64,000 nt of DNA from Candidatus Omnitrophota bacterium (GTDB lineage: Bacteria > Omnitrophota > Gorgyraeia > JABMRG01): the NCBI GenBank assembly GCA_043823785.1, contig JBDRAM010000042.1:1563-65562 (forward strand), given 5' to 3'. The notes below the pieces were generated by a model. The model saw only the letters and a list, made by a program, of their open reading frames with translations. It did not search any database and had not been told where the DNA came from. This document shows, one piece after another, positions 41,762 through 62,736 of the stretch; the stretch's first letter is position 1, and every line of letters begins with the position of its first letter. Made by a program: the position numbers and the translations under genes.

Positions 41762-41912
41762 GCCCTATAAGCATAAAGAAAAGGGCATCTGATTGCAAAG
41801 ATTAAAAAAGAAGATTACAGCGATTGATGCTTTAATCTCTGTAATCTAAATTAATCACTGTCATTAGGTATAATCAGAGATTATACCTAATGATTATACC
41901 AAGGAGTAAGCC
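41762..41912. repeat. Roughly 150-bp conserved intergenic element (family C), copy 2
   Basis: atgccctataagcataaagaaaagggcatctgattgcaaagattaaaaaagaagattacag...ttaatctctgtaatctaaattaatcac...aggtataatcagagattatacct...attataccaaggag immediately before the ATG. Confidence 0.8.
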
Positions 41913-42305
41913 ATGGATAATAAAACAAAGGTATTAATAGTAGATGATGACCACGATGTATTGGAGCTCCTGAAAGACTTATTTACAAAAAAGGGTTATG
42001 AGGTAGAATGTGTTAACAGCGGGTTGGAGGCCTTGGATTTCACTGATAAGGCGAGCGTAGATGCGATACTGCTGGATATAAAGATGCCGGAACTCGATGG
42101 TATTGAAACGCTCGGAAGGCTCAAGAAGAAAAAACCTGAATTGCCCGTAGTCATACTAACAGCTTATGGTTATGATGACAATTTTATAAATAAGGCATTA
42201 GAGCTAGGTGCCGCCGGATACATAAGCAAAAACCTGCCGCTGAATCAGATAGTATACGCGTTTCAGACTCTCCTGGCCGCGGAGCAGAAAAAAAGGGAAG
42301 GATAA
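41913..42305 (+). CDS. Response regulator, receiver domain only (CheY-like)
   Basis: KVLIVDDDHDVLELL...ILLDIKMPELDG...K. 130 aa. No output domain. Confidence 0.8.
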   Translation: MDNKTKVLIVDDDHDVLELLKDLFTKKGYEVECVNSGLEALDFTDKASVDAILLDIKMPELDGIETLGRLKKKKPELPVVILTAYGYDDNFINKALELGAAGYISKNLPLNQIVYAFQTLLAAEQKKREG

Positions 42306-42344
42306 CCTTCCGGGAAACTCTCAGAAAAATAAGACCTAAATCGG

Positions 42345-42431
42345 GCCGAAGTGGCGGAACTGGCAGACGCGCTAGCTTCAGGAGCTAGTGGGAGCAATCT
42401 CATCGGGGTTCAAATCCCCGCTTCGGCACCA
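42345..42431 (+). tRNA. tRNA-Leu (anticodon CAG), type II with long variable arm, CCA encoded
   Basis: Acceptor stem gccgaag/cttcggc. Anticodon loop tTCAGga (CAG). T-loop GGTTCAAATCC. 87 nt manual fold. Confidence 0.75.
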
Positions 42432-42909
42432 CCCTTCGCCTTGCAGGTCATCCTTCGCCTATGGTTAGCAATTCATAGTAGCAGGCTACGGATGGCAGGT
42501 AGAGTTTCATAGCAGCTGGTTTACCCTCCGAAGCTTTAGCGCAGGAGGGCTTCGGGTGGCAGGCCATATACGAGTGGTACATGCCCTGAACCTGAGCAAC
42601 GAAGTGACGAATGGTTTAGGGCAAACTCTCAGGTACATGGCAGGCCACTTCCCTCCTCATAAGGATCAACCACAAGTTTCTTAGCAGATTCCCGCGTAGT
42701 TTTTAGCCGATATTTTCTTAATATATAGAGCTTTGGGTAATTAGCGGATAAAGATACAGACATTTTGATTTTTGTCCGGGAAACCGTAACCGACATCTAT
42801 AAGGAGACATATTCTCTGTCTTAATCCCGAGAAGTTCCTACAGGAGAGAAAAGATCGTTTTGAGAAGATAAAATCGATTAAGGTATATCTGGATAAGAAA
42901 AACAGAGGT

Positions 42910-43536
42910 TTGGCCCAGGCAAAAGGAAAAAGACACAGGGAGATATTAAGATATGAGCTTAAGAAGTATTTAGAGAGAAGATCCTCACAAAAGATCTTCA
43001 CATTTCGTCTTACCGCCAGAGGCAAGAGTTTCCACATAAATTATCGAGTTTCAGAAAGAGCTATTCAGGAGGCGGCCATACTGAATGGGCTATATGTTAT
43101 AATGAGCAGCGTAAAGGGTGTAAATGCTGAAACCTTAATCTCTGCTTATCAGAGCAGAATGGAAATAGAGAGAAGTTTTTATCAATTAAAAAGCTTTGTT
43201 GAAATTAGACCTATATACCACCATAATGAGGAACGCATAAGAGCCCATGTAAGCGTTTGTGTATTGGCATATCTGCTAAACAATACGGTTACACATCTAG
43301 TGAGGCAGAAAAAAGATTTTGATGATCTAACAGCGCAGTCGGTATATGGGTATCTCAGGAGTTGTAAGTTAGTCGAATTGAATGCGGGTGGTGAAAAACG
43401 ACTAAAGATCACATCGCCTACGAAAGAACAGATTCGACTTACAGAAATTCTATCGGATAAAGATCTTCTGAATGAGGAGAAGGTTCAAAAAGTTCTAAAG
43501 CAGCTATTAGTGCTAAAAAACACCCTTCATGAATAA
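42910..43536 (+). pseudogene. Truncated IS1634/IS4-family transposase, C-terminal about 208 aa only
   Basis: YQSRMEIERSFYQLKSFVEIRPIYHHNEERIRAHVSVCVLAYLL is the DDE-E region characteristic of IS1634/IS4 transposases. There is no N-terminal half, and a GC-rich remnant sits upstream next to the tRNA. Confidence 0.65.
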
Positions 43537-43664
43537 ATCCCCTGACGAGTGTCTCTACACATAATCAAAAAAGTGGCGAGAAAGGCTTGACATGTAATAA
43601 GGAATATGATAAATTAAATACTGGTAAGTATTGTTCAACAGAAATCAAAACCTTCCAAAACATT

Positions 43665-44150
43665 ATGAGACTATCTATTATCAAGACCTTTAAAAAGCGC
43701 TCTAATAACGGTTTTACTCTTATCGAAATACTGCTGGCAATAGGAATTGCAGCTTTTACCATTTGCGCTATACTCGCAACTTATATTTCGTGCTTCGCCC
43801 TTATTGAGACCGCTAAAAATATAAATATCGCGACAAACGCCGCATCCGGCCTAATGGAGGATATCCGCGCGACTCCTTTTAATGGAGTGAATAGTTTTAA
43901 CGGGGTTAATTTTATTGTAAATAATATACCTGCAAGCCGCGGCGTAGTAAGCATCGCGGATGTAACTCCAGCCGGCTGGCCGTCTGCGACTTTTCTTGAG
44001 GCAACAATAAGCGTCTGCTGGAACCAGCGCAACAGAATTATGGGTGAGGACGCGAATTTAAACGGAGCGCTTGATGCCGGCGAGGATGCCAACGGCAATG
44101 GGACAATAGATTCTCCCGTACAATTAACGACACGAATCGCGCAGAGATAA
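43665..44150 (+). CDS. Minor pilin / pseudopilin (prepilin N-terminal cleavage-methylation domain)
   Basis: MRLSIIKTFKKRSNNGFTLIEILLAIGIAAF. Start set at the internal ATG 43665; the track ORF begins at 43587. Confidence 0.7.
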   Translation: MRLSIIKTFKKRSNNGFTLIEILLAIGIAAFTICAILATYISCFALIETAKNINIATNAASGLMEDIRATPFNGVNSFNGVNFIVNNIPASRGVVSIADVTPAGWPSATFLEATISVCWNQRNRIMGEDANLNGALDAGEDANGNGTIDSPVQLTTRIAQR

Positions 44151-44153
44151 GAT

Positions 44154-44693
44154 ATGAGGGGTTTCACGCTTCTAGAAATACTTATTACGGTAGCCATATT
44201 TACCATCTTGGTGCTTGGGGTATTCCAGCTGATGGAAGCCGGAAACAGGTTTTGGCTTGAAGGCGGGGCATCGGCTGAATTGCGTCAGGATATAATAAGG
44301 GCGCTTATGAGAATGGAGTCTGAACTCAAAGAAACACGGTCCATATCGCCTGCGCCACAAATTAACTTAGCAATCGGCGCCAGCAGTCCTGCTCTTACTT
44401 TTAACATACCTCAAGTCGATTCCGCGACCGGCACAATCTTAAACCCCATAGGCGCTGTAAACTGGTCAGCCCCTATTACGTATGCGCTTAATGCCAACAA
44501 TCAGATAACAAGAACAGATATCGGCACCGGAACCGTAACTATAATTGCAAACCACGTTAGCGGCCTGGTGTTTGCAAGGCTCGCAACCGATCCGTCTAAT
44601 ATCTTACGGATTAATATTACCGTAGGGAAAACCACTCTTACAAGAAGGCAGTTGCAGGATACGCAGCAGATTAGAATAAAAATGAGGAATTAA
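44154..44693 (+). CDS. Minor pilin / pseudopilin
   Basis: MRGFTLLEILITVAIFTILVLGVF is a class III signal. 179 aa. Confidence 0.75.
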   Translation: MRGFTLLEILITVAIFTILVLGVFQLMEAGNRFWLEGGASAELRQDIIRALMRMESELKETRSISPAPQINLAIGASSPALTFNIPQVDSATGTILNPIGAVNWSAPITYALNANNQITRTDIGTGTVTIIANHVSGLVFARLATDPSNILRINITVGKTTLTRRQLQDTQQIRIKMRN

Positions 44694-44716
44694 TTAAAGA
44701 GGGGAAAGGACTTAAG

Positions 44717-46039
44717 ATGTTTATAGGACTTAGAAACAAAAAGGGCTCAGCGCTTATAACCGTTTTTTTAGTCATAACTGTTTTGCTTGTCCTTTCCGCC
44801 GCATTCGTCAGCGTAGCCATCAGCCATAGTCGCGCCACTGAGAGATTTAAAAACCGAACCGTAGCATTTCAGACTGCTGAAGCAGGGCTTGACCATGCTT
44901 TCGCCTGGCTGCAATACCGGCCTGTTCCGCCTGCCGGTATCCTGGTCAATCCTTGGGAAGCCGCAGGTGCCCCTACTCTTATCGGAGGAGGCAATTACAC
45001 AGTTATTATTACCAAGCTCGTTTCCCCAACCGGCGATTCGTCTATTATCAGATACAGCTTGACTTCTTCCGGTTCATTTGCGGGCGCAACTCGAGTTTTG
45101 ACAAGCTATGTGCAGACATCCAGCTTTGCGCGCTACATCTGGTTTACCAATGGGGAAACGTATAACGGCACAGCGGTGTGGTTTTGGTCGCTGGATTACC
45201 TGGATGGCCTAGTGCATACCAACGGACATTTTAATATCTACAAAAATCCCGTCTTTGCAGGCGCGGTAAGTTCAGCTGATGACTACATAAGATATTACAA
45301 TAATGGGAATAATATAAATTTATCACAAACCTCTAATCCGCCGCATGACCTGCCTAATTTTCAGCAAGGTATCAATCTTGGAGCATATCCTATCGTTATG
45401 CCTAATAAGGCGACTAAGTTACGGAATGCCGCTGCCTGCGGAGGACTTACATTAACAGGAAATACAACAGTTGTACTCAAAGACGATGGCACTATGGATG
45501 TTACTAATGCAGATAATAATTGGAATAATACAAATAGGCCTTTGCCTGACAACGGCGCGCTCTTTGTAACCGGCGGCAACTTGACTATCGAAGGAACGCT
45601 TAGCGGCCAATTAACTGCCGGCGCCGAGAACGATATAATTATCAGTGACAATATAGTTTATGCTGATGATCCCCGGGCTAACGCGGCTTCAACCGATGTT
45701 ATGGGTATTGTTTCAGAAGGCGATGTCGTGATAGATGACAGCGCTTCAGGCCCAGGCGGCAATCTTGAGATAAATGCCTGCGTTATGGCATTAAATGATT
45801 CTTTTATGTTGGAGAGCTATTGGATAGGGCCTGCGCAGGGAACGCTGACTGTTTACGGAGGCATTATTCAGGAAGAGAGAGGTCCCATTGGCACTTTTAA
45901 TGCCAAGGCTAATACTCAGATCAGCGGTTACGCTAAAAACTATACGTATGATTTAAGATTGCTTGGTTTTCCGCCGCCTTTTATGCCCACTACGGGCGAT
46001 TATGATATATTAGCATGGGAGGATAATAATAAACTATGA
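44717..46039 (+). CDS. PilX-N-domain minor pilin-like protein, 440 aa (candidate tip/adhesin subunit)
   Basis: GSALITVFLVITVLLVLSAAFVSVAISHSRATE plus FQTAEAGLDHAFAWL, a PilX N-terminal-type motif. C-terminal region is N/G/T-rich and beta-helix-like. Confidence 0.6.
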   Translation: MFIGLRNKKGSALITVFLVITVLLVLSAAFVSVAISHSRATERFKNRTVAFQTAEAGLDHAFAWLQYRPVPPAGILVNPWEAAGAPTLIGGGNYTVIITKLVSPTGDSSIIRYSLTSSGSFAGATRVLTSYVQTSSFARYIWFTNGETYNGTAVWFWSLDYLDGLVHTNGHFNIYKNPVFAGAVSSADDYIRYYNNGNNINLSQTSNPPHDLPNFQQGINLGAYPIVMPNKATKLRNAAACGGLTLTGNTTVVLKDDGTMDVTNADNNWNNTNRPLPDNGALFVTGGNLTIEGTLSGQLTAGAENDIIISDNIVYADDPRANAASTDVMGIVSEGDVVIDDSASGPGGNLEINACVMALNDSFMLESYWIGPAQGTLTVYGGIIQEERGPIGTFNAKANTQISGYAKNYTYDLRLLGFPPPFMPTTGDYDILAWEDNNKL

Positions 46040-48161: not shown

Positions 48162-48218
48162 ATACCGGATTTATAATAAATAAAAATTTTAAAACATTAA
48201 ATATCGGAGGTAAACGCT

Positions 48219-48620: not shown

Positions 48621-48670
48621 ATCCCCACACCAACTTCAATTCTGGAAGTTGGTGTAAAGTTGGTGTGGGG
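48621..48670 (+). promoter_or_regulatory. Alternative-hairpin leader immediately upstream of the giant coiled-coil gene RBS
   Basis: Left arm tccccacaccaactt can pair with either of two tandem agttggtgt(gggg) segments (48648-56 and 48658-70). AAGGAGG follows at 48674. Confidence 0.45.
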
Positions 48671-48688
48671 ATAAAGGAGGATAATTCC

Positions 48689-51600
48689 GTGCCCATAATG
48701 CGACCAACAATTAAGGTAAGGTTATGCATGGTTGCAGTTTTCACTATAACGGCTTTTTTACTTGCGGTACTTAGCTCTATCTCTACGGTGAGCGCACAAA
48801 CACCAAGAGAAGGCTCTGTTATCTACGCAAGCAATAAAGCAGGTTTTATTTTTATAAATTTGGGAAAAAACAATATTAATATCGGAGACCTGGTAGAGGT
48901 CTATAGAGACTCTTTACATGTTGGGACTTTTTCTGTCAAATCCGTAATGAAGAATATGTCAGAAGCCTGGGCCATAGATGAGAATAAGGATGTGCTGGTG
49001 AAGATAGGCGATAAGGCTATAATACCGGGCAGAAGCCAAGACGCTATTATGGGTTCCGGCCAGGAAGATTACGAATCGACACAGGAGGAGGAAGAGGCTG
49101 AATTCGAAGAGGAGCATATAGAATCAGCGCCCAAAGAATCTACGCTAACCTATACTAAGGCAGAGGCGGCGCTTTCTTCCAGCTATGCAGCAGATGCTAT
49201 GCAGAAGGATTACGATAATTTACAATATGAGGTCGATGCGTTAAAAGAAAAAATAACTTATTTACAAGGTGAGAACCAGGATATTAAAGGTACAGGCGCT
49301 ATATTAAAAGAAGAGATAGCACTTTTAAAGAAAGAGAAGTCTTCCCTTTCTTCACAGCTTGTTTCCGCCAAGCAGGCCTCGGAAAAGGCAGATGTTCGGA
49401 AAAGCACAGAAGCAACTTTAAGGCAAGAGCTCGACCGCCTCAGTAGTGAAAATAGCTCTATTAAAAAGGAAAAAGAAAGCTTAGAAGAAGAGATAGCCTT
49501 TTTAGAAGATGAGAAGTCTTCACTTGCTTCGAAGCTTGCTTCCGCGGAAGAGTCCAGCGAAGGCCTTGAGGATTTTAAAGATACAGAAGAGAGCCTGAAG
49601 GAAGAGGTGGAATATTTAAAAGATGAAAATGAAGACTTAAAAGATGTAGAAGGGTCACTGAGAGAAGAGATAGAATATCTTAATAAGGAAAAAACCTCTC
49701 TCACATCAGAGCTAACCCTGCTTAAAAAATCTTCTAAAGGCCAGGAGCAGTTAAAGGGCGCGGAAGAGAGCTTGAAGAAAGAGATAGAATATTTAAAAGA
49801 TGAAAATGAAGATCTTAAAGACGCTGAATCTGGTTTTAAGGATGAGATAAGAGATCTGAAAACTAAAAATCAGGAGTTAGAAGATGCGGAGGCTTTGTTG
49901 AGGCAAAAGCTTGCTTCCGGACTTGAAAGCGGAGCAGAGGATGATCTAAAGAACGAGATAGCTTCCCTTGAAGATGAGGCAGCGTCATTAGAGAATGAGA
50001 AGTCATCCCTCCTATCCAAGGTAGATAGTTTAGAAGATTCAAAAGACGAAGTAGAATCTAAGCTTAAGGATGAGATAGCCTCGTTAAAGGAGGCAGAGTC
50101 TGAATTAAAGAATAGAATAAATTTATTGACAGGCACTAAGAGTGAATCGGAAAAAGCCTTAAACACAAAGATAGCCTCTCTGGAAGACGAGCTAGTATCG
50201 TTAGGAGATGAGAAATCATCTCTTCTTTCCAAAATAGATAACTTAGAAGATTCAAAAGACGAAGTAGAATCTAAGCTAAGAGATGAAGCCAATACGTTAA
50301 AAGAAGAGGCAGCCTTATTGAAAAAGGCAGAGTCTGAATTAAAGAATAGAATAAATTCATTGACAGGCACCAATGCCCAGGCGGAAAAAGAGTTAAACGC
50401 AAAGATAGCTTCCCTTGAAAATGTGGCAGCGTCATTAGGGAATGAGAAGTCATCCCTCCTATCCAAGGTAGATAGCTTAGAAGATTCAAAAGACAAAGTA
50501 GAATCTAAGCTTAAGGATGAGATATATGTATTGAAAGAAGCAGAGACTGCCCTAAGGAAAGAGATAGCTTCTTTGACTGAGGATAAAGGCAGCACAGAAT
50601 CTCAGCTGCGTGCCAAGATAGCATCGCTGGAAGATTATATTTATGATTCGAATAAGAAGAATAACTCCTTAAGCGCGAAAATAGCATCGTTAGAGGAATC
50701 CGCGAAGACGATAGAGTCTAGGCTTAATGATGAGATTACTTCATTGGCAGGTTCCGAGATAGACCTAAAGTCTAAGATAAGTTCATTAACCAAAAGCAGA
50801 GATGATATAGAATCTGTTCTGACGGGCAAGGTAAAAACACTTGAAGAAGAGAGCCTCCTTCTAAAGCAGGAAAAGGCATCCCTGAATACGCGTATGCTTT
50901 CTTTAAAAGATTCAGGCGCAGAAGTAGAATCCAAGCTAAAGGATGAGATATCTTCTCTGAATGATGATAAGGGAAAGCTGCAGGATGATTTAACATCAAA
51001 GATAACTTTATTTGAAGAAGAGGCCTCTGCCTTAGATAAAGAGAGATCTTCTTTGAAGTCAAAAGTAGCTTTATTGGAAGAAGCGAAAAGTAAAACAGAG
51101 TCAATGCTGAAGGAAGATATAGTATCTCTGACCAAGATAAGTAACCAGACAGAAAAAGAATTGAGCGAGAAAATATTAACTTTAGAGGGCAAGCTGTCTT
51201 CTTTGGCTAAAGAAAACTTGTCACTTTCCTTAAAAGTTTCGTTACTTGAAAAATCAAAAAAAGACGCGGAAGAAAAATTAAAATCCGAAACAACAGCATC
51301 AAAAGAAACAGAAGCGGAATTAAGAAATAATTTAAGCCTTACAGCCAAGGCCAAGGCAAAGGCAGAAGAAAGCCTGAGCAAGGCCATAAATTCGCTGGAA
51401 AAGGAGATCTTGGCCTTAAAAAATGAGAATATATCTCTTGCAAAGCAGATGGCTTCTATGGGTGACGCTAAAAAGGAGACAGAGTATGAGTTGGGAGAGA
51501 AGATAAAGTCTCTTGCAATGTCCAATGTTGATATAAAATCCGATCTTATGAAGAATATAGAGTCTCTTGAAAAGGAGAAATACTCATTAATTACACAGCT

Positions 51601-54600
51601 GGCTTCGTTAGATGATTCCAAGAAGAAGACAGAGGCATTACTGAAGTCTGAAATAGATTCCTTAATAAATACAGATACTGATTTAAGGTCTAAGGTAGCT
51701 TTTCTGGAAGTAAAAAATAAAGATATGGAGGGGGAGGCCGCGGGCAAGATATCTAAATTGAAGGAGGAAAACGCTCTTTTAATTTCAAAGATCAGTTTAA
51801 TGGAGAATGCGAACAAAAAGACCCAAGCCCAGCTTGGGGAGAAGATAGATTCTCTAATAGACGCCGAGACAAAATTAAAAAATAACATAGCTGTCTTAGA
51901 AGATTCTAAGAAAAAGAGCGAGGCATCGCTTAGCGAAACAATAGTCGTATTAAGAGATGAAAAGAATTCCTTAAGCGCCGAACTGGTTTCCCTGAAAGAC
52001 TCAAAAGAAAAGACAGAGGCCAAACTTTCAAAAGATATAGCGTTGCTTATAGACGCAGAGACTGATTCAAAATATAAACTCGCTTCCCTATCCGATACCG
52101 CGGCTAAAAAAGAACAGGAATTAAGAGGCAGGATAAAGGAATCAGAGGATAAGGTTTCCCAGCTTAATAAGGAGAATTCCTATCTTACAACAACACTTAA
52201 TTCTCTTAAAGGGTCGGAGAGTAAGCAGAAGTCAGAGATCGACTTATTGATTAAATCAAAAAAAGAGCTTGCCTCGGATCTTAGCAATAAGATGGCGCTG
52301 CTTGAGGGTAAGATCTCCGCACTGAATAAAGAGAACGCCCTGCTGAATTCTAACCTTGTTTCCCTCACCGATTCCAAGAATGAGACAGAGGCTAAAATGA
52401 AGCAGCAGGCTGCTTCTTTGCTGGATGCTAAGAATAGTATCGAGTCAGAGCTAAGTGAAAAGATTGATACTCTTGAAAAGGAATCGTCCTCGGTAAACGC
52501 GCAGCTTAAAGCCCTGGAAAACTCAAAAAAATACATAGAAACCAAACTTAAAGACGAGATAACCCTTTTAATAAATTCAAAGAAAGAAATCGAATTCGCG
52601 TTGAATAAAAAAATAGAAGCTTTTAATAATAAGGTTACCTCCTTGGGGGAAACGAATAAATCGCTGTCTACTCAGATAAGATCGCTGGAGGAGTCGAGCA
52701 ATGTCATGGTTGAGAATCTAAGAGGCCAGATAGCAGCTTTAACAAAGGCCAGAGATGATGTCGAGTCGCAACTTAGCGGAAAGATAAAGGCCTTGGAGCA
52801 GGAGAGAGCATCGCTTGGTTCAAAACTCATCTTTCTTGAAAATACAGCCGGCAAAGTAGAGGCTAACCTGAGAAGCGAAATAGCTTTATTGACTAACGCG
52901 AAAATAGAGTCTGAAACTACTCTTAAGAAGGATTTAGATGCTGCCAAGAAGGAGAGGGACTCCCTCATATCCCAGCTGGCATCCTCAGAAGATAGAAGAA
53001 GAGACACAGAAGTACAGCTTAAGGGCGTGGTTGGCTCGCTGACATCTCAGCTTGCTTCCCTGGAAAACGCAAAGGCAGATACGGAGTCAAAATTAAAGGC
53101 TGAATTGACATCTTTAGCAAAGACAAGCAAGACAACAGAATCTGTTCTTCAGGAAAAGATAAAGTCCTTGCAGGAAGAAGCCGCAAGCCTTGTTAAAAAT
53201 AACAATCTTACATCCTCCGCGTTAGCTAAAAAGACAGAGGCGCTTAAAAGCGAAAAGGCTTCTTTATCGGCGAGGTTAGCGGAAACAGAAAAAATAAAGA
53301 ATGAGATGGCTAAAGATCTGAAATCGCAGATAGCCTTACTCGTAGAATCAAAAAACAAGACAGAATCAGCGCTTAGCGCCGAGATAAAAAAGCAAGAAGG
53401 CATTATAAGCGATCTTACTGAAAAAAACAGTACAACATCTTCTGCCTTAGCTAAAAGAATAGAGAATCTTGAGGGAGCAAATCTGGCATTGGCTAAAAAT
53501 CTGGAAGATGAAAAGAAGGCAAAGAATGATATCCAGGCCGTCCTGGAATCCCAGATAGCCTCATTGCTAAAATCGAAAAAGGAAGTCGAAACAGGTTTTA
53601 CAAATAGAATAACATCTTTGGCAGAAGAGATGACATCGATCAGCAAGGCAAAAAATAGCATCGAGTCAGAACTTGGCACCAAGATAAATTCTCTTGAAGA
53701 AGAGATATCTTTTTTGAATTCCGAGCTTACCTCCATGACCAATGAAAAAGATACCATGGAATCGAAACTTAAAAATGAGATAGCGTCCTTGGCCAGTGAT
53801 AAACATAGCAAGGAGATGGATTCCAGCAAGCAGATAAGTTTACTGGAGCAGGAAGCAGCTTCTTTAAATGCCCAGATCAGGTCTTTAGATGATTCAAAGA
53901 AGGATATGAAGGGTACATATATAGATCAGTTGGGCGAATTAAGGGATACAGAAAACAGATTAAAGCAAAGAGTATCGGTATTGGAAAACAGCGAATCTAA
54001 ATTGAAGACAGAAGTAGACTCTCTTTCCAAAGCAAAAAATGAAGCGGAAGCAGAGCTGAAGAAAAAGATAACATTATCTGATAAAGAAAAGTCATTTTTG
54101 ATATCCAAGATGAGCGGCCTGGAGGAGTCAAAAGAGGGAGAGGTTTCTAAGCTGAAGGTGGAACTCGACACCCTTAAAAAGACAAGGCTTGAAGATGAAT
54201 CAGCCCTAAAGGATAGGATAGCATATTTGGAAAAAGAGAGGTCAGAGCTCAACGCTAAGATCACGGATATGGAAAAAGAGAAGAGAGCGGATGAGATAGA
54301 GCTCAGAGACCAGATACTTTTACTTAAAGAAAAGAATGCCGAGGCCAATACGAATATCGCGTCTTTGAAAAAAGATAAGGAAGACGATATAGCGGGCCTT
54401 AGAGCCGGCATGCTCCCTCTTGAGGAGGAAAATTCTTATTTGAGAGCGCAGATAGCTGCTTTAAAAGACGCGAAAAAAGAGACAGAGGCAGAGCTTAAGT
54501 CAGAGATAGTAACATTAAGAGATTCTGAATATAGGCTTAAAGAAGAGTTATCTCTTTTGTCTAAAGAAGGTGAGGATGTAGAGTCAAACCTTTATAATAG

Positions 54601-55411
54601 GATAGCTTCATTGGAGCAAGACAAGGCTACGCTTGCTACAAAATATACCGCCATGGAGAGCGTAAGGGTAAGGCTTAAAGAACAGCTGGATGTTTTAGAT
54701 GATGAGAGAAGCATGCTTTCAGAAAAACTTAGCGGGCTTGAAGGAAGCAAGAAACAGGTCGAGGCCAAGCAGAGTGAAGAGATCAATAACCTGAAGGAGA
54801 GTGAGGCTAAGCTCATAGCGGAGAACGCGTTGCTTAGAGATTCGCTTAAAGAGGCTGAGGCTAATCAGAAAGCTTCTGAATATAAAGTCGGTTCTTTACA
54901 GCAGAAAAGCACAGACAGGGAAAAAAGTTTAGCAGATGAATTAGCCGCGCTTAAAAATGATAAAAAGAATCTGGAGAGCAGGCTAAGCATGCTTGAAAAT
55001 GATAAAGCTGAACTTAGCAAAAAAATTGAGGAAAAAATAGGAGTCGAGGCCGCATTAAGAAAAGAGCTGTCTGTTTCAGATCAAGCGCCGATTAAGGCCA
55101 TGAAAAAAGAGATAAAAGAATTGGAGCCAGAGACTCTGCAAAAAGAGCTTGCGAAAAAAATAGAAGCGAGAGATATGACGGGTATGGTCATAGGAAAAGA
55201 TGACGCTACAAGAGATATTCTTATAGATCTAGGGAATTCTAACGGAGTCTTTAAGGGCCAGATTTTCGAGGTATATCATGACAACTTAAAGGTCGGAACA
55301 TTAAGAGCAGTAAGATGTTATGATACTTTTACTAAAACAGAGACATTGTCCGCGGAAGAGTTTGACAGCATAGAGGAGCTTGATCTGGTGCGTACTTCTG
55401 CTGAAAAATGA
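48689..55411 (+). CDS. Giant secreted/periplasmic coiled-coil protein, about 2240 aa, with homologous N- and C-terminal beta-modules
   Basis: GTG start 8 nt after AAGGAGG. Signal peptide ...SISTVSA/QT. More than 1900 aa of heptad-periodic E/K/S/L-rich repeats. The roughly 99-aa units are near-identical at DNA level (for example 50030-50110, 50250-50330, 50470-50540). The terminal modules GDLVEVYRDSLHVGTFSV and GQIFEVYHDNLKVGTLRAV are related. Confidence 0.8.
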   Translation: MPIMRPTIKVRLCMVAVFTITAFLLAVLSSISTVSAQTPREGSVIYASNKAGFIFINLGKNNINIGDLVEVYRDSLHVGTFSVKSVMKNMSEAWAIDENKDVLVKIGDKAIIPGRSQDAIMGSGQEDYESTQEEEEAEFEEEHIESAPKESTLTYTKAEAALSSSYAADAMQKDYDNLQYEVDALKEKITYLQGENQDIKGTGAILKEEIALLKKEKSSLSSQLVSAKQASEKADVRKSTEATLRQELDRLSSENSSIKKEKESLEEEIAFLEDEKSSLASKLASAEESSEGLEDFKDTEESLKEEVEYLKDENEDLKDVEGSLREEIEYLNKEKTSLTSELTLLKKSSKGQEQLKGAEESLKKEIEYLKDENEDLKDAESGFKDEIRDLKTKNQELEDAEALLRQKLASGLESGAEDDLKNEIASLEDEAASLENEKSSLLSKVDSLEDSKDEVESKLKDEIASLKEAESELKNRINLLTGTKSESEKALNTKIASLEDELVSLGDEKSSLLSKIDNLEDSKDEVESKLRDEANTLKEEAALLKKAESELKNRINSLTGTNAQAEKELNAKIASLENVAASLGNEKSSLLSKVDSLEDSKDKVESKLKDEIYVLKEAETALRKEIASLTEDKGSTESQLRAKIASLEDYIYDSNKKNNSLSAKIASLEESAKTIESRLNDEITSLAGSEIDLKSKISSLTKSRDDIESVLTGKVKTLEEESLLLKQEKASLNTRMLSLKDSGAEVESKLKDEISSLNDDKGKLQDDLTSKITLFEEEASALDKERSSLKSKVALLEEAKSKTESMLKEDIVSLTKISNQTEKELSEKILTLEGKLSSLAKENLSLSLKVSLLEKSKKDAEEKLKSETTASKETEAELRNNLSLTAKAKAKAEESLSKAINSLEKEILALKNENISLAKQMASMGDAKKETEYELGEKIKSLAMSNVDIKSDLMKNIESLEKEKYSLITQLASLDDSKKKTEALLKSEIDSLINTDTDLRSKVAFLEVKNKDMEGEAAGKISKLKEENALLISKISLMENANKKTQAQLGEKIDSLIDAETKLKNNIAVLEDSKKKSEASLSETIVVLRDEKNSLSAELVSLKDSKEKTEAKLSKDIALLIDAETDSKYKLASLSDTAAKKEQELRGRIKESEDKVSQLNKENSYLTTTLNSLKGSESKQKSEIDLLIKSKKELASDLSNKMALLEGKISALNKENALLNSNLVSLTDSKNETEAKMKQQAASLLDAKNSIESELSEKIDTLEKESSSVNAQLKALENSKKYIETKLKDEITLLINSKKEIEFALNKKIEAFNNKVTSLGETNKSLSTQIRSLEESSNVMVENLRGQIAALTKARDDVESQLSGKIKALEQERASLGSKLIFLENTAGKVEANLRSEIALLTNAKIESETTLKKDLDAAKKERDSLISQLASSEDRRRDTEVQLKGVVGSLTSQLASLENAKADTESKLKAELTSLAKTSKTTESVLQEKIKSLQEEAASLVKNNNLTSSALAKKTEALKSEKASLSARLAETEKIKNEMAKDLKSQIALLVESKNKTESALSAEIKKQEGIISDLTEKNSTTSSALAKRIENLEGANLALAKNLEDEKKAKNDIQAVLESQIASLLKSKKEVETGFTNRITSLAEEMTSISKAKNSIESELGTKINSLEEEISFLNSELTSMTNEKDTMESKLKNEIASLASDKHSKEMDSSKQISLLEQEAASLNAQIRSLDDSKKDMKGTYIDQLGELRDTENRLKQRVSVLENSESKLKTEVDSLSKAKNEAEAELKKKITLSDKEKSFLISKMSGLEESKEGEVSKLKVELDTLKKTRLEDESALKDRIAYLEKERSELNAKITDMEKEKRADEIELRDQILLLKEKNAEANTNIASLKKDKEDDIAGLRAGMLPLEEENSYLRAQIAALKDAKKETEAELKSEIVTLRDSEYRLKEELSLLSKEGEDVESNLYNRIASLEQDKATLATKYTAMESVRVRLKEQLDVLDDERSMLSEKLSGLEGSKKQVEAKQSEEINNLKESEAKLIAENALLRDSLKEAEANQKASEYKVGSLQQKSTDREKSLADELAALKNDKKNLESRLSMLENDKAELSKKIEEKIGVEAALRKELSVSDQAPIKAMKKEIKELEPETLQKELAKKIEARDMTGMVIGKDDATRDILIDLGNSNGVFKGQIFEVYHDNLKVGTLRAVRCYDTFTKTETLSAEEFDSIEELDLVRTSAEK

Positions 55412-55887: not shown

Positions 55888-55941
55888 TGACAACAAGCTG
55901 CAAGCCGCAAGCAGCGAGTTAAAGGTTATAAAGGTAGATAT

Positions 55942-57467: not shown

Positions 57468-59284
57468 GAAATAGCCACATCTGTATATCAAGGGTTTTTA
57501 AATTAATAGTTTCAGTAGTTTTTTTACTGGATTTTTCATGCATAGAGCATACGATAGCTGCTGAATCAGAGCTTACGCAATTGGCCCAGGCAGCTGTAAA
57601 CGCGCCCATGGAACAGACAGATATAGCGCCTATCATAAGCGGCATGGGGGGAAAGATCTCACTGGACCTTCGCAATATAGATGTAATGGACGCGCTTAAA
57701 TTCCTGGCTATGAAGACAAGGATGAATATCGTTGCTACAAAGAATGTTACAGGAAGGGTCACGCTTTCGGTAGACAATGTAATGGTAAGAGATATATTCG
57801 ATATAATGCTTCGATCAAACGAGCTGGCCTACGTGGAGCAGGGAAACATCTATAATGTTATGACAGAGGATGAATACAGGACACTTTTTGGCAGGAGTTT
57901 TTCGGATATGCGCAAGGTAAGGACATTCAAGCTTCAATACGTTATACCTGAACAGGGGTTTAGCCTTTTAGATACCTTAAAAAGCACCATAGGCAGAGTG
58001 CTTGTTGAGCCGGATTCGGGCACTGTATTGATCATGGATACGCCTGAGAAGATAGAGGAGATCGAAAAGGCCTTAGAAGAGTTCGAAACGAGAAATGAGG
58101 TAAAGGTCTTTGACTTACAATACGCGTTAGCAAAAGACGTGGAAGAACAGCTTAAGCCGCAGCTAAACGCGAAAAAGGTAGGTACCATAAAAGCGGATGA
58201 ACGTACAAATCAGATTATTGTACAGGCGCTGCCAGGCAGAATGAAGGAGATAGAGGAGTTGGTAATAGCCCTGGATCAGAAGACGCAGCAGGTCATAATA
58301 GATGCTAAGATAATAAAGATAAAGTTTACCGATGCAACAAAAAAAGGGCTTGAGTGGGAAGGTATTTTAAAAAGAGGCGAGCGCATAGGTTCAGCATATT
58401 TGGGCTCTTATCCATTCAGCGCTATCCAGGCAGCTACAGATGTATTCAGGACCAGAAGCCAGGTTTTAGATGATCTGGGTGGTGAGATAGGCTCTATTCC
58501 TTTTAGCGGCTACAGTACTAATTATGGAGGCACAACAAAGACTACTTTTGGTGAGGATATGCACCTGGGCCTCATACATCCTGAGGCAGATGTCGACCTT
58601 CTCATAAATTATCTTAATACAATAGGCAAGACGCAGATCCTTTCAAGCCCAAGGATATCCGCTATTAATAATCAGGAGGCAAAGATACATGTGGGTGAGC
58701 GCCAGGCTTATGTTACTACAACTACTACCAGCGGCCAGACGACGACAACCGTTTCAGAAGAGGTGACATTTATAGATGTGGGTATTCAGTTATCCGTTAC
58801 GCCGGTTATAAATGAAGAAGGCTATGTAAGGATGAAGATAAAGCCTGAGATATCAGCTGTGGTAGATACCTTGGTTACGCCATCGGGTAATAGAATTCCT
58901 ATAATAGATACTTCTACGGCGGAAACGACTGTTTTAGTAAAAGATGGAACCACTATCATAATAGGAGGATTGCAGAAGGAAGAGTCGACAGACAATAAGA
59001 AACAATTCCCTATTTTAGGCAATATACCGATATTAGGTTTTTTCTTCGGTACTGATACCAAGACAACGATAAGGACAGAGCTTATGATAATGCTCACCCC
59101 TACAATAGTAATCGGCGATAAGCTGACAACCGGAGATGAGAGAGACTTCAAGTATGAGCCCGCGAGAGGCTACGATGAGTATGAGAATTTCAGCGAGGAC
59201 AAAGATATGATAAAGCCCACGCAGGAGCCCGAGGAGAGGATAAAGCCTTATATGCCGTATGAGATGGAAAAGGGCGCGTCTTGA
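57464..59284 (+). CDS. Secretin (GspD/MshL-like), second secretin in the window
   Basis: Signal peptide, two secretin-N repeats, and secretin core TTIIIGGLQKEE...FPILGNIPILGFFFG...ELMIMLTPTIV. Confidence 0.8.
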   Translation: MRNSHICISRVFKLIVSVVFLLDFSCIEHTIAAESELTQLAQAAVNAPMEQTDIAPIISGMGGKISLDLRNIDVMDALKFLAMKTRMNIVATKNVTGRVTLSVDNVMVRDIFDIMLRSNELAYVEQGNIYNVMTEDEYRTLFGRSFSDMRKVRTFKLQYVIPEQGFSLLDTLKSTIGRVLVEPDSGTVLIMDTPEKIEEIEKALEEFETRNEVKVFDLQYALAKDVEEQLKPQLNAKKVGTIKADERTNQIIVQALPGRMKEIEELVIALDQKTQQVIIDAKIIKIKFTDATKKGLEWEGILKRGERIGSAYLGSYPFSAIQAATDVFRTRSQVLDDLGGEIGSIPFSGYSTNYGGTTKTTFGEDMHLGLIHPEADVDLLINYLNTIGKTQILSSPRISAINNQEAKIHVGERQAYVTTTTTSGQTTTTVSEEVTFIDVGIQLSVTPVINEEGYVRMKIKPEISAVVDTLVTPSGNRIPIIDTSTAETTVLVKDGTTIIIGGLQKEESTDNKKQFPILGNIPILGFFFGTDTKTTIRTELMIMLTPTIVIGDKLTTGDERDFKYEPARGYDEYENFSEDKDMIKPTQEPEERIKPYMPYEMEKGAS

Positions 59285-59414
59285 TTTTTGAAAGGATTTA
59301 AGATCCTTCGGTCCCCTGCGGGGACCTCAGGATAAATTCGCACTTATAAGTTATGTCGTTCTTCGACAAGCTTAGGACTCCATAACTTATGTGCTCATTT
59401 AGAAAGGGAAAAAA

Positions 59415-60506
59415 ATGAATAAATTTAAGATGATGGCGATATGTGTAGGTATTCTAGTTTTTGTAGAAGGCGCGGGGGTCCTCTATTTTGCTCACAGGGC
59501 TCAGGCGCTTTCCGAGGAGCTGGAGAATGTCGCTCCTGGATTGAAAGAGGAGTTAAACATTCTCAAAAAAGAGAAACAAAAGCTGGAAGAAGAGCGCAGC
59601 AGCCTCGCGGATGAGAACGAAAGAATAAAGAAGGATAGAGAGAATCTACTGGCGCAGACGAAGTTTCTCTTAAATCATAAAGCAAAGGCTGAGGAGCTTG
59701 ATAATGCCATGAAGGCCCTTGAGGCTAAGAAGCAGGAGATAGAGACGGGATTGACATCAAGGAATAAGGAGCTCGAGGATACCTTAAGAAGCGAAAGAGA
59801 GAAATTTGGCACAGAACACAGCGCGTTAAAACAGCAGAACAGCAAGCTGCAGGGTGTTGTAAAACAGCTTATGTATATACAGAAAGAGGTTGAAAGCGAA
59901 AGGGACTATCTTCAGGAAGCCTATGATAAGCTGAAAGATAAATCTACCATAACGGAATTTAAGAAAACAATATCCAATATTACCAAGGATAACAAGGACC
60001 TGGATAATAAGTTTAAGCTCGCGGAAAGAGACACTGAGAAACTAAAAGATCTAAAGAATAAAGCTGACGCGAGGATAGAAAGCTTAGAAACAAGCCTAGA
60101 TGAATATAAGAAGAATTATGATGATGCTAAGAAGAAAAACAATGCTCTTGAGAAAGAGGTAAAGAATATGCCTAAGAAGTTTCAAGAGCTATCCAGGCAG
60201 AACAGAACCCTTATAAAAGAGACAGCCAAGACACATTATAATCTTGGCGTTTTTTACACAAAAGAGAAAGAATATGATAGGGGCGCTTCTGAGTTCGCGA
60301 AGGCTGTTGAGATAAATCCGGATGACGCGTATTCTCACTTCAACCTGGGTTATTTATATGCTGAGCATATGGTAAACCGCAAAAAGGCGCTAGAGCATTT
60401 CAGGCATTTTTTAAGGCTTGCTAAGGGCAATGATAAGGATATAGACTGGGTAAGAAAATATGTACTTACCTGGGATACATACGAAGGCCATAGCGCGTTT
60501 AAGTAA
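59415..60506 (+). CDS. Membrane-anchored coiled-coil protein with C-terminal TPR repeats (MshN/PilF-like candidate)
   Basis: N-terminal TM, about 230 aa of coiled coil, then TPR (YNLGVFYTKEKEYDRGASEFAKAVEINPDDAYSHFNLGYLY). Confidence 0.5.
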   Translation: MNKFKMMAICVGILVFVEGAGVLYFAHRAQALSEELENVAPGLKEELNILKKEKQKLEEERSSLADENERIKKDRENLLAQTKFLLNHKAKAEELDNAMKALEAKKQEIETGLTSRNKELEDTLRSEREKFGTEHSALKQQNSKLQGVVKQLMYIQKEVESERDYLQEAYDKLKDKSTITEFKKTISNITKDNKDLDNKFKLAERDTEKLKDLKNKADARIESLETSLDEYKKNYDDAKKKNNALEKEVKNMPKKFQELSRQNRTLIKETAKTHYNLGVFYTKEKEYDRGASEFAKAVEINPDDAYSHFNLGYLYAEHMVNRKKALEHFRHFLRLAKGNDKDIDWVRKYVLTWDTYEGHSAFK

Positions 60507-60540
60507 GGTCTAGGCTGTAGGTTCTAGGTTGTAGGGTATA
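60507..60540. repeat. Family B half-copy
   Basis: ggtctaggctgtaggttctaggttgtagggtat resembles one arm of family B. Confidence 0.45.
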
Positions 60541-61055
60541 TGGCAAAAATTCTTCATATTATACTAATTCCAATCACAATATTATTTTTAACCATATCAT
60601 GCGGTGTTGCGCATGCCAAAGGCGTAGATTTTGTTATATCATCCGATAAGGCGGAATATAGCAAGGCAGATGCTATAAATATAACATTCAAAATAGTAAA
60701 CAAAAGCAAAGAAGAGATATATATCAATCAGCGCTTCTATATAAATTCTGCGGATACAGAAGAAGGAGAAAGGGAGGTCTACTTTAGGGTTACTTCTCCT
60801 TCAGGTGAAGAATTATCCTGTAAACATAAGAGTGACACAGGTTTTCCAAGGACAGATGATTTTGTATTATTAAAAACAGGTAATGAAATACAAGGGGACA
60901 GGCCTAAAAATATAAAAGGCCTTTTTGATTTTGATAGTACCGGAACTTATGAGATACAAGCAACGTACAAAAATATATATGGTAAAGAAATAGGGCTTGA
61001 TGTTTTTAAAGAAAAGATCGATTCTAAACCAATAAAAATAAAGATAGCGGAATGA
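60540..61055 (+). CDS. Secreted protein, unknown
   Basis: Signal peptide ILFLTISCGVAHA/KG. 171 aa. Confidence 0.45.
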   Translation: MAKILHIILIPITILFLTISCGVAHAKGVDFVISSDKAEYSKADAINITFKIVNKSKEEIYINQRFYINSADTEEGEREVYFRVTSPSGEELSCKHKSDTGFPRTDDFVLLKTGNEIQGDRPKNIKGLFDFDSTGTYEIQATYKNIYGKEIGLDVFKEKIDSKPIKIKIAE

Positions 61056-61077
61056 GTTATATGATATACATATACTA

Positions 61078-61173
61078 TCATTGCGAGGAGATTCGTAGTT
61101 CTGTCATTGCGAGCCGCCGAAGGCGGCGCGGCAATCTCTCTTTTTGGGATTGCTTCGCTTCGCTCGCAATGAC
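61078..61173. repeat. Family D element: direct TCATTGCGAG copies plus inverted copy and nested palindrome
   Basis: tcattgcgag at 61078-61087 and 61104-61113. Nested palindrome ccgccgaaggcgg. Inverted arm gctcgcaatgac at 61162-61173, which contains the PPIase start ATG. Confidence 0.7.
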
Positions 61174-62617
61174 GGTAGCGTTAATGTGCCTCTTAATTTT
61201 TTCGGGCCATGGCTTTTGCGAAGAGCAACCCTCGCAAAATGTAATAATGGGTGAGGCATTCGGTAAACCTGTTACTGTTGAGAATTTCAATTATTATTAT
61301 AAGACAGCCGCTGTTTTTACGCGCAGCGGTAAGGAGTCAAGAGACGAGGAAGATGTAAGGCAGGAGGCGTGGCAGAATCTGGTATTCAGGCATGAGGCCA
61401 GGGAACTGGATATTACCATAGAGCCCGAGAAACTAAAAGAGGACATAAAGCGCCTTATGGATGAGAAGGGTGTAGCGCATGGCAGCCAGGAGTACCGCGA
61501 TTGGGTTGAAAATGAGTTTGGCGAGGATGTTAAAACTTTCGAAAGACGCATCGAAGATCTATTGATAATAAACAAGTTTATTGATATAAAATTTAACCCT
61601 GAGATAATAATTTCAGAGGAAGAGGTAAAGCAGAAGTTCCTGAACCAGTACAACTCCTTTGAAAGTGAATATATAGGTTTTGAGAGCGAAGAAGATGCCA
61701 AGGAGTTCCATAAAAAGCTAAAGACTAACCCTAAGCTATGGAAAGATACATATGATGAGAAAAGAAAGCTGGGCCAAAAAGGGGCCGCATGGATAAACAT
61801 AATGACATTAGAGGCATTAATAGATCTCTGGAAGATACCTAAAGATGACGCTTACCGCATATTAAGCCGCAAGGAAGGGGATTTCATTGCGGCAAAGTAT
61901 TATTATGGCGACGCGGTATTTCGCCTCTTGCGCAGAAGAGAAGCGGATATGAGTATGTATACAGATAATAAAAAGGAATATCTAAGGAGCATGATATTAA
62001 GGCAAAGAAAGCAAAAGGCTGTAAGAGATTATTTCGAAGGCCTGCTTAAGAGGGCAAACCATAGGGATTATATACATGAACAGAAACTTGCTATTAAAGT
62101 AGAAGAGCTAAAACTTAAATCTTTACTTGCATTAGAGACAAATAGAGGTATAATAGTACTAAGGCTTTTTCCTGATATAGCGCCTAAGGCCTGTGAGAAC
62201 TTTATCGGCCTGGCGGAAAAAGGCTACTATGACGGTATAATATTTCACCGCGTGGTAAAAGATTTTGTTATACAGACAGGAGACCCCACAGGAACAGGCA
62301 CAGGCGGTGAATCGATCTGGGGTGAGCCTTTCAAGAATGAGATAAGTGAGGATGTTTCTTTTGACAAGCCAGGCATTCTAGGCATGGCAAATTCAGGCCC
62401 GGATACCAATAGCAGTCAGTTCTTTATAACTACCAAAGAAGCCCCGAGCCTGAATAAAAAATATACCATATTCGGCGAAGTAATAGAGGGCCTTGATGTT
62501 GTTAAGAAAATAGAAAGTACGCCTGTTGATGAGAAAGATAATCCTAGAAAAGAGCAGAAAATAGTAAAAGCATATATAAAAGGTATGCCCCATAAAGAGA
62601 AAGAAAAGGGCATCTGA
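61169..62617 (+). CDS. Peptidyl-prolyl cis-trans isomerase: SurA-like N-terminal chaperone region plus cyclophilin-type C-terminal domain
   Basis: Cyclophilin motifs FHRVVKDFVIQTGDPTGTGTGGESIWG and MANSGPDTNSSQFFITT. Start set at ATG 61169 (MTVALMCLLIFSGHGFC signal peptide); the track ORF begins inside a repeat element. Confidence 0.75.
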   Translation: MTVALMCLLIFSGHGFCEEQPSQNVIMGEAFGKPVTVENFNYYYKTAAVFTRSGKESRDEEDVRQEAWQNLVFRHEARELDITIEPEKLKEDIKRLMDEKGVAHGSQEYRDWVENEFGEDVKTFERRIEDLLIINKFIDIKFNPEIIISEEEVKQKFLNQYNSFESEYIGFESEEDAKEFHKKLKTNPKLWKDTYDEKRKLGQKGAAWINIMTLEALIDLWKIPKDDAYRILSRKEGDFIAAKYYYGDAVFRLLRRREADMSMYTDNKKEYLRSMILRQRKQKAVRDYFEGLLKRANHRDYIHEQKLAIKVEELKLKSLLALETNRGIIVLRLFPDIAPKACENFIGLAEKGYYDGIIFHRVVKDFVIQTGDPTGTGTGGESIWGEPFKNEISEDVSFDKPGILGMANSGPDTNSSQFFITTKEAPSLNKKYTIFGEVIEGLDVVKKIESTPVDEKDNPRKEQKIVKAYIKGMPHKEKEKGI

Positions 62618-62736
62618 TTACAAAGATTAAAAAATGAGATTATGACAGTTAAAACATTAATCTCTGTAATCTAAATCAATCACAGTAATCAGGTATAATC
62701 TTTGCTTATACCTGATAATTATACCAGGAGGAGTAG
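62584..62736. repeat. Family C copy 3; overlaps the last 11 codons of the PPIase CDS
   Basis: atgccccataaagagaaagaaaagggcatctgattacaaagattaaaaaatgagattatgacag...ttaatctctgtaatctaaatcaatcac...caggtataatctttgcttatacctg...attataccaggagg immediately before the ATG. Confidence 0.8.

Follow-up and report, generated by a model that had tools for sequence, protein, structure and literature searches.

What is the conserved sequence of about 150 bp that recurs between genes in a 64,000-nucleotide (nt) stretch of Candidatus Omnitrophota DNA (assembly GCA_043823785.1, contig JBDRAM010000042.1, positions 1,563 to 65,562 of the forward strand), here called the window? An earlier account made from the letters alone (the sequence-only reading) had described it as a mobile miniature element, comparable to a miniature inverted-repeat transposable element (MITE), that donates the end of one gene together with the promoter and ribosome-binding site of the next. 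The 150-bp sequences are best read as internally deleted, non-autonomous (MITE-like) copies of a selfish cassette of about 0.5 kb in Omnitrophota, a reading to which we give a probability of roughly three quarters. The parent element, a cassette with a gene of the GxxExxY family, is what the sequence-only reading missed.

Four copies of the element lie in the window: two full ones (C and D, formerly copies 2 and 3), one of a sister subfamily and one left-half remnant (Table 1). All three sites named earlier are confirmed, and the additional half copy brings the count to four. The hairpin, GATTA run, core and stem of the earlier description are present where they had been placed. Copies C and D are 79% identical (118 of 149 aligned columns; 80% ungapped), less than the 85% first estimated. 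Each is about 143 bp long, small and non-coding as expected of MITEs, without an open reading frame (ORF) of its own, and consists of a terminal hairpin, two forward GATTAC-N3-GATTA units, two reverse units and a second terminal hairpin, so that each full copy is an imperfect palindrome. The GATTA repeats noticed before do exist, but they run as two forward and then two reverse units and not as direct repeats throughout. The hairpin ATGCCC-N17-GGGCAT stands at 41760-41788 and 62585-62613, and both full copies carry the stem AGGTATAATC/GATTATACCT, followed by ATTATACC(A)AGGAG and then ATG; this stem, given earlier as a perfect 10 bp, is a perfect 11 bp in copy C and has mismatches in copy D. 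Within the window the units (GATTACNNNGATTA, at most one mismatch) match 13 times against 1.8 expected, a count reached by none of 100 shuffles. The core AATCTCTGTAATCTAA matches exactly at 29567, 41834 and 62659; with at most three mismatches it matches nine times against 1.55 expected, again a count that no shuffle reached.

The copy before pilA, formerly counted as a diverged one, is instead a member of a separate subfamily, which has two terminal hairpins of its own and lacks the TATAAT/Shine-Dalgarno module. A sigma70-type promoter of the host (TTGACA-N17-TATATT) lies downstream of it, followed by pilA. The same design with covarying stems is found in L031 and L033 (L-numbers denote related loci or contigs compared with the window copies).

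That the full copies were inserted is indicated by orthologous sites without them. Orthologues of the histidine kinase ahead of copy C, at 79, 74 and 62% identity, are followed by the response regulator after 11, 11 and 1 nt, with no element between; the order def (deformylase), histidine kinase, response regulator is conserved in the relatives, and the response regulator is 84% identical. The empty junction reads gctaaaaaataa and then ggagaggggccATG in L063, and gctaagaaataa and then ggagagaggccATG in L061, while the window reads gctaaaaaatag[atgccc...gattatacca]aggagtaagccATG, with the element in brackets. In L061 and L063 the empty site has the form TAA followed by GGAGAG(A/G)GGCCATGG, in which the kinase stop TAA directly abuts GGAG, and alignment with them places the insertion point of copy C between ...AAATA(A) and (A)AGGAG. 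Copy C is by this comparison an insertion of about 143 bp with clean junctions, placed after the stop codon and ahead of the native Shine-Dalgarno sequence, and the Shine-Dalgarno sequence of the response regulator is ancestral and not supplied by the element. The proposed donation of a ribosome-binding site to this gene must be given up, as GGAG-N6-ATG is already present at the empty sites of L061 and L063. The kinase and regulator of L041 had been considered as orthologues and were rejected at merely 32-35% identity; the true orthologues were then found.

The second site lies after a cyclophilin-type peptidyl-prolyl isomerase (PPIase), in the conserved order AAA, T2SSC, secretin, two further genes, PPIase, next gene. 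L041 and L042 have a 4-nt overlap of the PPIase gene with the next gene, whose Shine-Dalgarno sequence lies inside the last PPIase codons (L042 reads attaaaAGGAGGgcagacagATGA). The window reads ataaaAG[gtatgcccc...aattatacc]AGGAGGagtagATG, again an insertion directly 5' of the native AGGAGG. Because the ancestral tail of the PPIase overlapped the Shine-Dalgarno sequence, it was cut off, and the ORF (61052-62617) now runs through the left hairpin to the TGA of CTGATTAC. All 119 PPIase orthologues listed end in a segment resembling EQKIIKAYIK, followed by unrelated tails, and GMPHKEKEKGI is unique to the window; the comparison bears out the earlier suggestion that this C-terminus derives from the element. 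No copy of the element was found by nhmmer in any element-free relative at either site. As with MITEs, the element is multi-copy and varies in presence or absence at orthologous sites: the 64 kb of the window carry four copies, and relatives have empty sites where the two full ones lie. The sequence-only reading would have yielded to duplicated operon boundaries, that is, to local copies only, with the same sequence at the same genes in relatives. Dozens of copies at non-orthologous genes in other metagenome-assembled genomes (MAGs) and orthologous junctions without the element refute such a duplication, nothing was found in its favour, and its probability is negligible.

Beyond the window, the 23-nt core pattern was found at eight loci in species-representative genomes (six Omnitrophota MAGs, one genome labelled Nitrospinae and one Syntrophaceae) and on 31 metagenome contigs. 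All of these loci are genuine copies except three, most of them with the full architecture and ahead of unrelated genes; L004, L015 and L019 (an Epilithonimonas ORF) were set aside as chance matches to the core. The genes downstream are folE (GTP cyclohydrolase I), a DUF2231 gene, a PilZ gene, guaA-C (GMP synthase C-domain), an iscS-like gene after an Rrf2 regulator, mutE (MutE), an AMP-binding enzyme, rplI (ribosomal L9) after S18 and an M24 peptidase. Additional copies were found elsewhere in the same contigs, one contig of 2.9 kb carrying three. Three contigs (L011, L012 and L038) start and end within the element, and contigs broken in this way are expected of a multi-copy repeat; homologues of GxxExxY are mostly on contigs shorter than 2 kb. 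Copies of one genome have subfamily signatures in common, such as the ATGCCC stems of both full window copies, and identical deletion junctions are shared by L008 and L009 and by L027 and L035. Scans of viral contigs gave no match or only chance 16-mers; no match was found in PHROGs, and only a weak Cas4-like one in PADLOC. With the family at unrelated genes and orthologous junctions free of it, the earlier view of an inserted mobile miniature element, not a promoter that evolved in place, is upheld.

The origin of the gene-less form is suggested by longer relatives. In L006, L013, L014/L032, L037, L039 and L044 an ORF of 123-130 amino acids stands exactly between the forward and the reverse units. 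It encodes a GxxExxY protein (TIGR04256, 124 bits; PF13366 PDDEXK_3, 118 bits) and has no other profile matches. The GxxExxY motif, D68 and E78-x-K80 are invariant from Omnitrophota to the homologues of Bacteroides, Treponema and Fusobacteria. The start codon of the gene is inside a forward unit (GATTACAATGATTAAA or GATTACAGTGATTAAAGA), and the first reverse unit, TTTAATCTC, provides the stop with its TAA. The full cassette of about 0.5 kb consists of the left hairpin AGACATCC...GGATGTCT, two forward units, the gene, two reverse units and the right hairpin CAGGTATAATC...GATTATACC, and the gene-less copies share all end modules with a 507-bp element that bears the GxxExxY gene. Partial remnants of the gene are present in L003, L023, L025, L028-30, L036 and L040, so that the copies form a series from intact genes, through internally deleted genes that keep N- and C-terminal codons, to gene-less copies. 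The latter keep ...GATTAATGnTTTAATCTC, the RLMV* end of the gene; the window copy reads GATTGATGCTTTAATCTC, and the remnant in copy C is the counterpart of ...AGATTAATGGTTTAATCTC (RLMV*) in gene-bearing copies. No GxxExxY gene is found within the window. Given the graded deletions and the retained last codons, the simplest origin of the 150-bp form is a deletion between two GATTAA. Such a deletion, from the GATTAA at the start of the gene to that at its end, would leave a forward-forward-reverse-reverse palindrome between two hairpins.

The same arrangement could be read in the opposite direction, with hairpin, arrays and hairpin as a pre-existing host repeat, GxxExxY genes homing into its centre and the window copies as unoccupied targets. 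PD-(D/E)XK homing endonucleases exist, the gene is always at the exact centre of the palindrome, and gene-less copies outnumber gene-bearing ones in several contigs. This order of events is nevertheless unlikely, for the last codons of the gene persist in gene-less copies, the graded internal deletions keep codons of both termini, and the whole gene-less module is absent from orthologous sites. The module is therefore an insertion, whatever the history of the gene.

The 507-bp gene-bearing unit is identical at 503 of 507 positions (99.2%) between a histidine kinase-response regulator locus (L044, L052) and L049, while the flanks agree at about 45% of positions, as unrelated sequences do, with sharp boundaries (AGACATCC...ACCAGGAG). 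At the former the unit lies between a dCache histidine kinase and an RR-PilZ (response regulator-PilZ) gene, and at the latter in the 5' untranslated region of another gene, downstream of its TTTACA-N17-TATAAT promoter. The whole unit seems to have moved recently.

Some gene-bearing loci have peculiarities of their own. In L006 (5184-5555) the GxxExxY ORF lies between a molybdopterin oxidoreductase gene and that of its 4Fe-4S subunit. A single in-frame TAA interrupts it at a conserved position (VHK*LGPGF), probably the mark of a recent pseudogene. In L068 (9926-10540; GCA_043826355.1) the gene lies between two pseudopilin (N_methyl) genes, with extra forward GATTAC units on both sides that are irregular against the standard frame. 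In L017/L021/L022 and in L039, loci that differ in their left flanks, a common sequence (gaagggttatgaaagactaagtctgtggcccatcgatg...) breaks the second reverse unit after AATCTTAGTCA; this sequence may be another mobile one that targets the element. The pairing of L039 (full gene) with L017/L021/L022 (deleted gene) as in-place decay of one locus was dropped, since the left flanks differ and the right flank is possibly another insertion.

At both ends the unit array abuts a hairpin whose 3' arm stops at CT, immediately before GATTAC. The left hairpin (H1) is AGACATCC...GGATGTCT in most copies and AGATGCCC...GGGCATCT in the window; the right one (H2), read on the other strand, is AGGTATAATC...GATTATACCT. 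The stems of other subfamilies are GAGGTTGCTGA/TCAGCAACCTC, AGAGAGCACTG/CAGTGCTCTCT, GAGATTTCTG/CAGAAATCTC, AGGGCG/CGCCCT and AGACACCC/GGGTGTCT, all of them paired. A perfect stem of at least 7 bp that ends no more than 3 nt from the outermost unit was found at 75% of the array ends (61 distinct ones) but at 2.3% of random positions, and the stems of this kind represent 10 or more different sequences. H1 (three pairs) and H2 both show compensatory changes, the outermost pair of H2 being T-A in copy C and C-G elsewhere, and the terminal hairpins appear to be under selection. The inverted GATTAC arrays are sub-terminal, and the actual termini are two different hairpins, unlike simple terminal inverted repeats. 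In the arrays the GATTAC/GATT letters are conserved while neither the N3 nor the spacer bases of the outer units are complementary; the arrays therefore look like sequence motifs, putative protein-binding sites, and the hairpins like structural signals. A tally of wobble pairs by sense and antisense strand on the arrays was discarded as invalid, since a palindrome matches both strands.

A mechanism can be proposed in which the GATTAC arrays would be binding sites for the GxxExxY nuclease, the hairpins its structure-specific recognition or cleavage sites, and both full and gene-less copies would be mobilised by the nuclease in trans. That GxxExxY may mobilise the element is suggested by its co-location, its intact catalytic residues and the similar frames around distant homologues.

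Copies lie in sense orientation in the short gap ahead of the host gene, directly 5' of its AGGAG Shine-Dalgarno sequence. Across distinct copies the host ATG comes 76-81 nt after the core, and the right terminus TTATACC is followed by AGGAG or AGGAA at 22 of 27 junctions. The constant spacing from core to ATG is explained by sense insertion just 5' of Shine-Dalgarno sequences, AGGAG being the Shine-Dalgarno sequence of the host in both empty-site comparisons. The left end closes all three frames within about 16 codons: one by a TAA in the H1 loop, one by the TGA of CTGATTAC and one by the TAA that the first GATTAA contains. An upstream gene that overlaps the Shine-Dalgarno sequence of its neighbour therefore gains a short element-encoded tail, and one that ends earlier keeps its end. 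The upstream ORF ends immediately ahead of H1 at four sites, L001, L007, L035 and window copy C (in the last of which AG of the element completes TAG), in the H1 loop in L006, L008 and L009, and at the TGA of CTGATTAC in the window PPIase and in the histidine kinase of L044.

The retained native Shine-Dalgarno sequence, possibly together with TATAAT in the right hairpin, would keep the downstream gene expressed. A TATAAT promoter in H2 is possible but unproven; the motif is nearly invariant but is also an arm of the conserved H2. No sigma70-type promoter (-35/-10 at 16-18 nt) was found by a scan in either full copy, where TATAAT has no acceptable -35, and the donated promoter of the earlier account, based on TATAAT alone, is not supported. 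Likewise, no intrinsic terminator was found at H1, which has a stem of 6-9 bp, a loop of 12-17 nt and no T run.

TATAAT without -35 is also what activator-dependent promoters have, and the element was earlier likened to a response-regulator binding array, that is, to an operator array with a promoter, either recruited or arisen in place, on which a transcription factor or response regulator would act. GATTA motifs at spacings of about 9-10 bp and 19-22 bp, a perfect TATAAT downstream of them and a copy ahead of a response regulator gene agree with this. However, the adjacent regulator is receiver-only, without a DNA-binding domain, the genes downstream in other genomes (folE, guaA-C, iscS-like, rplI, mutE, PilZ and others) are housekeeping genes of unrelated function, the arrays flank a nuclease gene, the insertions lie within tight operons, and the pilA-type subfamily has arrays and yet uses a separate canonical promoter. 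The comparison with a binding array was therefore abandoned, and regulation of this kind is a very improbable explanation.

A further possibility is a structured intercistronic RNA useful to the host, with stem-loops that act in the mRNA (3'-end protection, RNase III site, access to the Shine-Dalgarno sequence) and that spread by recombination. In favour of this, the genes on either side of the element are co-directional and the element always lies in their sense. Its consensus fold is made up of three hairpins, with compensatory pairs (single-sequence z-score -2.5), H2 tolerates sense-strand G-U-type substitutions in L001 and L027, and two GATTATACC copies beside the Shine-Dalgarno sequence are alternative pairing partners for the 5' arm of H2. 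Against these stand the lack of an Rfam match (with Rfam 15 at gathering score the sole match in the window was a tRNA-Leu), the conserved GATTAC with non-complementary N3 and spacers, which fits a sequence motif and not a stem, the lack of a terminator-like U tract, the enclosed nuclease gene and the behaviour as an insertion. As the explanation of the element this is rather unlikely, but it concerns consequences and is compatible with a mobile origin; a role at the RNA level, in mRNA processing or stabilisation, would be compatible with the sense orientation and the predicted three-hairpin fold.

Several points weigh against reading the window copies as deletion products of a mobile GxxExxY cassette. 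The signatures shared within genomes could stem from gene conversion and not from transposition. No clear target-site duplication was found in the junction comparison; AG flanks 20 of 22 left and 24 of 27 right junctions, and this ambiguous AG may be a 2-bp duplication, part of the hairpin or native AGGAG. The terminal AGGAG is perhaps native in some copies and element-borne in others, for L012 and L038 keep an AGGAG about 25 nt upstream of the functional Shine-Dalgarno sequence. The element is accompanied by no recognised transposase or recombinase, and we know of no PD-(D/E)XK protein of the GxxExxY family that has been shown to move DNA. The structure model of GxxExxY is of moderate confidence (predicted local distance difference test, pLDDT, 73.5), Foldseek gave no significant match against the PDB (best E-value 0.023), and a PDB sequence search gave no match. 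As to current activity in this genome, the window has no GxxExxY gene and its full copies are just 79% identical.

Frames of similar design are found around GxxExxY genes in other phyla. On a Bacteroides finegoldii plasmid (L055, 2446-2475 and 2888-2917) the gene is framed by a 30-nt, 90% complementary inverted pair of CAGAGGAC tandem units, and the cassette follows the radA stop immediately and leaves 5 nt to the next ATG; two of the three arm mismatches are G-T, that is, wobble pairs in the sense RNA. On plasmid 1 of Gemmatirosa kalamazoonensis (L067, 987-1059), in a high-GC phylum, a 32-nt, 91% complementary palindrome with three CGCGGAT-type units per arm lies about 75 nt downstream of a GxxExxY-like ORF and has the same array-palindrome design. 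On the contrary side, no flanking inverted repeat was found for the Persicobacter GxxExxY gene, and the repeats in Treponema and Fusobacteria are short (16-17 nt). GxxExxY (PDDEXK_3) proteins may tentatively be regarded, with odds that we place somewhat below even, as nucleases that serve tiny mobile cassettes of a widespread, so far unrecognised class. These would be bounded by structure-specific hairpins and by inverted arrays whose units are 9-10 nt long (GATTACNNN in Omnitrophota, CAGAGGACN in Bacteroides, CGCGGATNN-type palindromes beside the gene in Gemmatirosa). Such cassettes would insert in sense orientation directly 5' of a Shine-Dalgarno or start region, a position that makes them tolerable to operons, and decay to MITE-like palindromes like those of the window. 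The PDDEXK_3 family has been listed as of unknown function, with multiple transfers (PMC3424549). The literature searched, on GxxExxY and PDDEXK_3 as well as on repeats in Omnitrophota, described neither the element nor a link between GxxExxY and bounded cassettes next to Shine-Dalgarno sequences or gene-less derivatives.

The window has further repeats. A second intergenic family (3726-3812 and 4654-4740, 83% identical) consists of three forward TAGGGT and then three reverse ACCCTA, the same design with a different motif, and its copy at 4654-4740 ends ...CCCTATAATACAGGAATTATAT just ahead of the ATG of the gene at 4758-6290. A third family (2580-2646 and 2658-2724 in tandem, and 24803-24869) has a hairpin GCGCC-TAAAA-GGCGC followed by an outer pairing of AATCCACCG...CGAAGGCGGAT; its copy at 24803-24869 ends about 20 nt before an ATG, and the family has no Rfam match at gathering score. 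At 42345-43536 a tRNA-Leu(CAG) directly follows the response regulator gene and precedes a truncated DDE_Tnp_1 transposase ORF (42910-43536), a possible integration hotspot beside copy C. A 2248-amino-acid ORF (48665-55411) is full of tandem coding repeats of 63-234 nt and is K/E-rich and coiled-coil-like, typical of the giant repetitive proteins reported for Omnitrophota.

Table 1. Copies of the element in the window and their parts (SD, Shine-Dalgarno sequence; H1 and H2, left and right terminal hairpin).
Feature	Position	Strand	Remarks
Copy C, full gene-less copy	41758-41900	+	Between histidine kinase stop and native SD of receiver-only response regulator; nhmmer 141 bits
Copy C, H1 (AGATGCCC...GGGCATCT)	41758-41790	+	First AG completes histidine kinase stop TAG (41757-41759)
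Copy C, forward units GATTGCAAAGATTA, GATTACAGCGATTG, then GATGCTTTAA	41791-41826	+	GATGCTTTAA is the remnant of the GxxExxY last codons and stop
Copy C, reverse units TAATCTCTGTAATC, TAATCACTGTCATT	41833-41865	+	Contain core AATCTCTGTAATCTAA
Copy C, H2 (TAGGTATAATC-AGA-GATTATACCTA) and outer repeat GATTATACC, right terminus	41865-41900	+	TATAAT at 41869-41874
Native (ancestral) SD AAGGAG, spacer and response regulator ATG, outside the element	41901-41915	+	Empty sites L061/L063
Copy D, full gene-less copy	62582-62725	+	Between KAYIK of cyclophilin-type PPIase and native AGGAGG of next gene; nhmmer 135 bits
Copy D, H1 (GGTATGCCCC...GGGCATCT)	62582-62617	+	Encodes last 11 PPIase residues GMPHKEKEKGI; stop is TGA of CTGATTAC (62615-62617)
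Copy D, unit array	62616-62690	+	Forward GATTACAAAGATTA; decayed second forward 62638-62651; reverse 62658-62671, 62677-62690
Copy D, H2 (CAGGTATAATC...CTTATACCTG) and outer repeat AATTATACC, right terminus	62690-62725	+	TATAAT at 62694-62699
Sister-subfamily gene-less copy before pilA	29478-29640	+	Hairpins GAGGTTGC...GCAACCTC, AGAGATTGCT...AGCAATTTC
Units of the pilA copy	Forward at 29520, 29539; reverse at 29566, 29585	+	No TATAAT/SD module
Left-half remnant: hairpin AGGGCG...CGCCCT and forward units 8180-8193, 8204-8217	8155-8217	+	Gap between CAAX-protease-like gene and IF-2B/MtnA-like gene

If the proposed origin and mechanism are right, a role would be assigned to a large family of unknown function, GxxExxY/PDDEXK_3, and a type of mobile element would be added, with a PD-(D/E)XK nuclease and ends made of a hairpin plus an array. 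It would also be an example of a selfish insertion that survives in tight operons by landing upstream of the ribosome-binding site and closing the upstream frame. For annotation, the element accounts for odd C-terminal tails, 150-bp gaps in two-component and other operons, and broken assemblies in Omnitrophota MAGs.

Several known systems resemble the element in part. The Correia elements of Neisseria are MITEs that affect neighbouring genes. Correia-type MITEs and the window copies are alike in being about 100-160 bp long, non-coding, of inverted-repeat architecture and multi-copy, in lying in intergenic gaps, in being co-transcribed with neighbours, in folding into long hairpins, and in being able to alter expression signals. 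In contrast to them, the ends here are a hairpin plus a two-unit array and not simple terminal inverted repeats, there is no TA duplication, the full-length relative encodes a PD-(D/E)XK GxxExxY protein and not a DDE transposase, and insertion is in sense orientation directly 5' of the Shine-Dalgarno sequence. The REP/REPIN-RAYT systems share inverted pairs of short palindromic units, a small gene flanked by the same repeats, structure-specific hairpins, high copy number and genome-specific subfamilies. However, the gene here is PDDEXK_3 and not a Y1 HUH (RAYT/IS200-like) transposase, gene-less copies derive from gene-bearing ones by internal deletion, and many copies of the gene exist, in contrast to the one domesticated copy of a RAYT. 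Rickettsia palindromic elements likewise add translated residues to host proteins; those are in-frame internal insertions, while here only C-terminal tails arise, as a by-product of insertion 5' of the next Shine-Dalgarno sequence. Free-standing homing endonuclease genes and ORF-bearing rRNA intervening sequences are similar in that a small nuclease-type ORF is wedged between undisrupted genes, with flanking inverted repeats that could form a stem around it. Unlike homing endonuclease genes, the element occupies many loci per genome and not one cognate site, has abundant gene-less derivatives, and its nuclease is putative. Within the GxxExxY family itself (TIGR04256/PF13366), the ORF of the full-length relatives is a clear member with an intact D...ExK.

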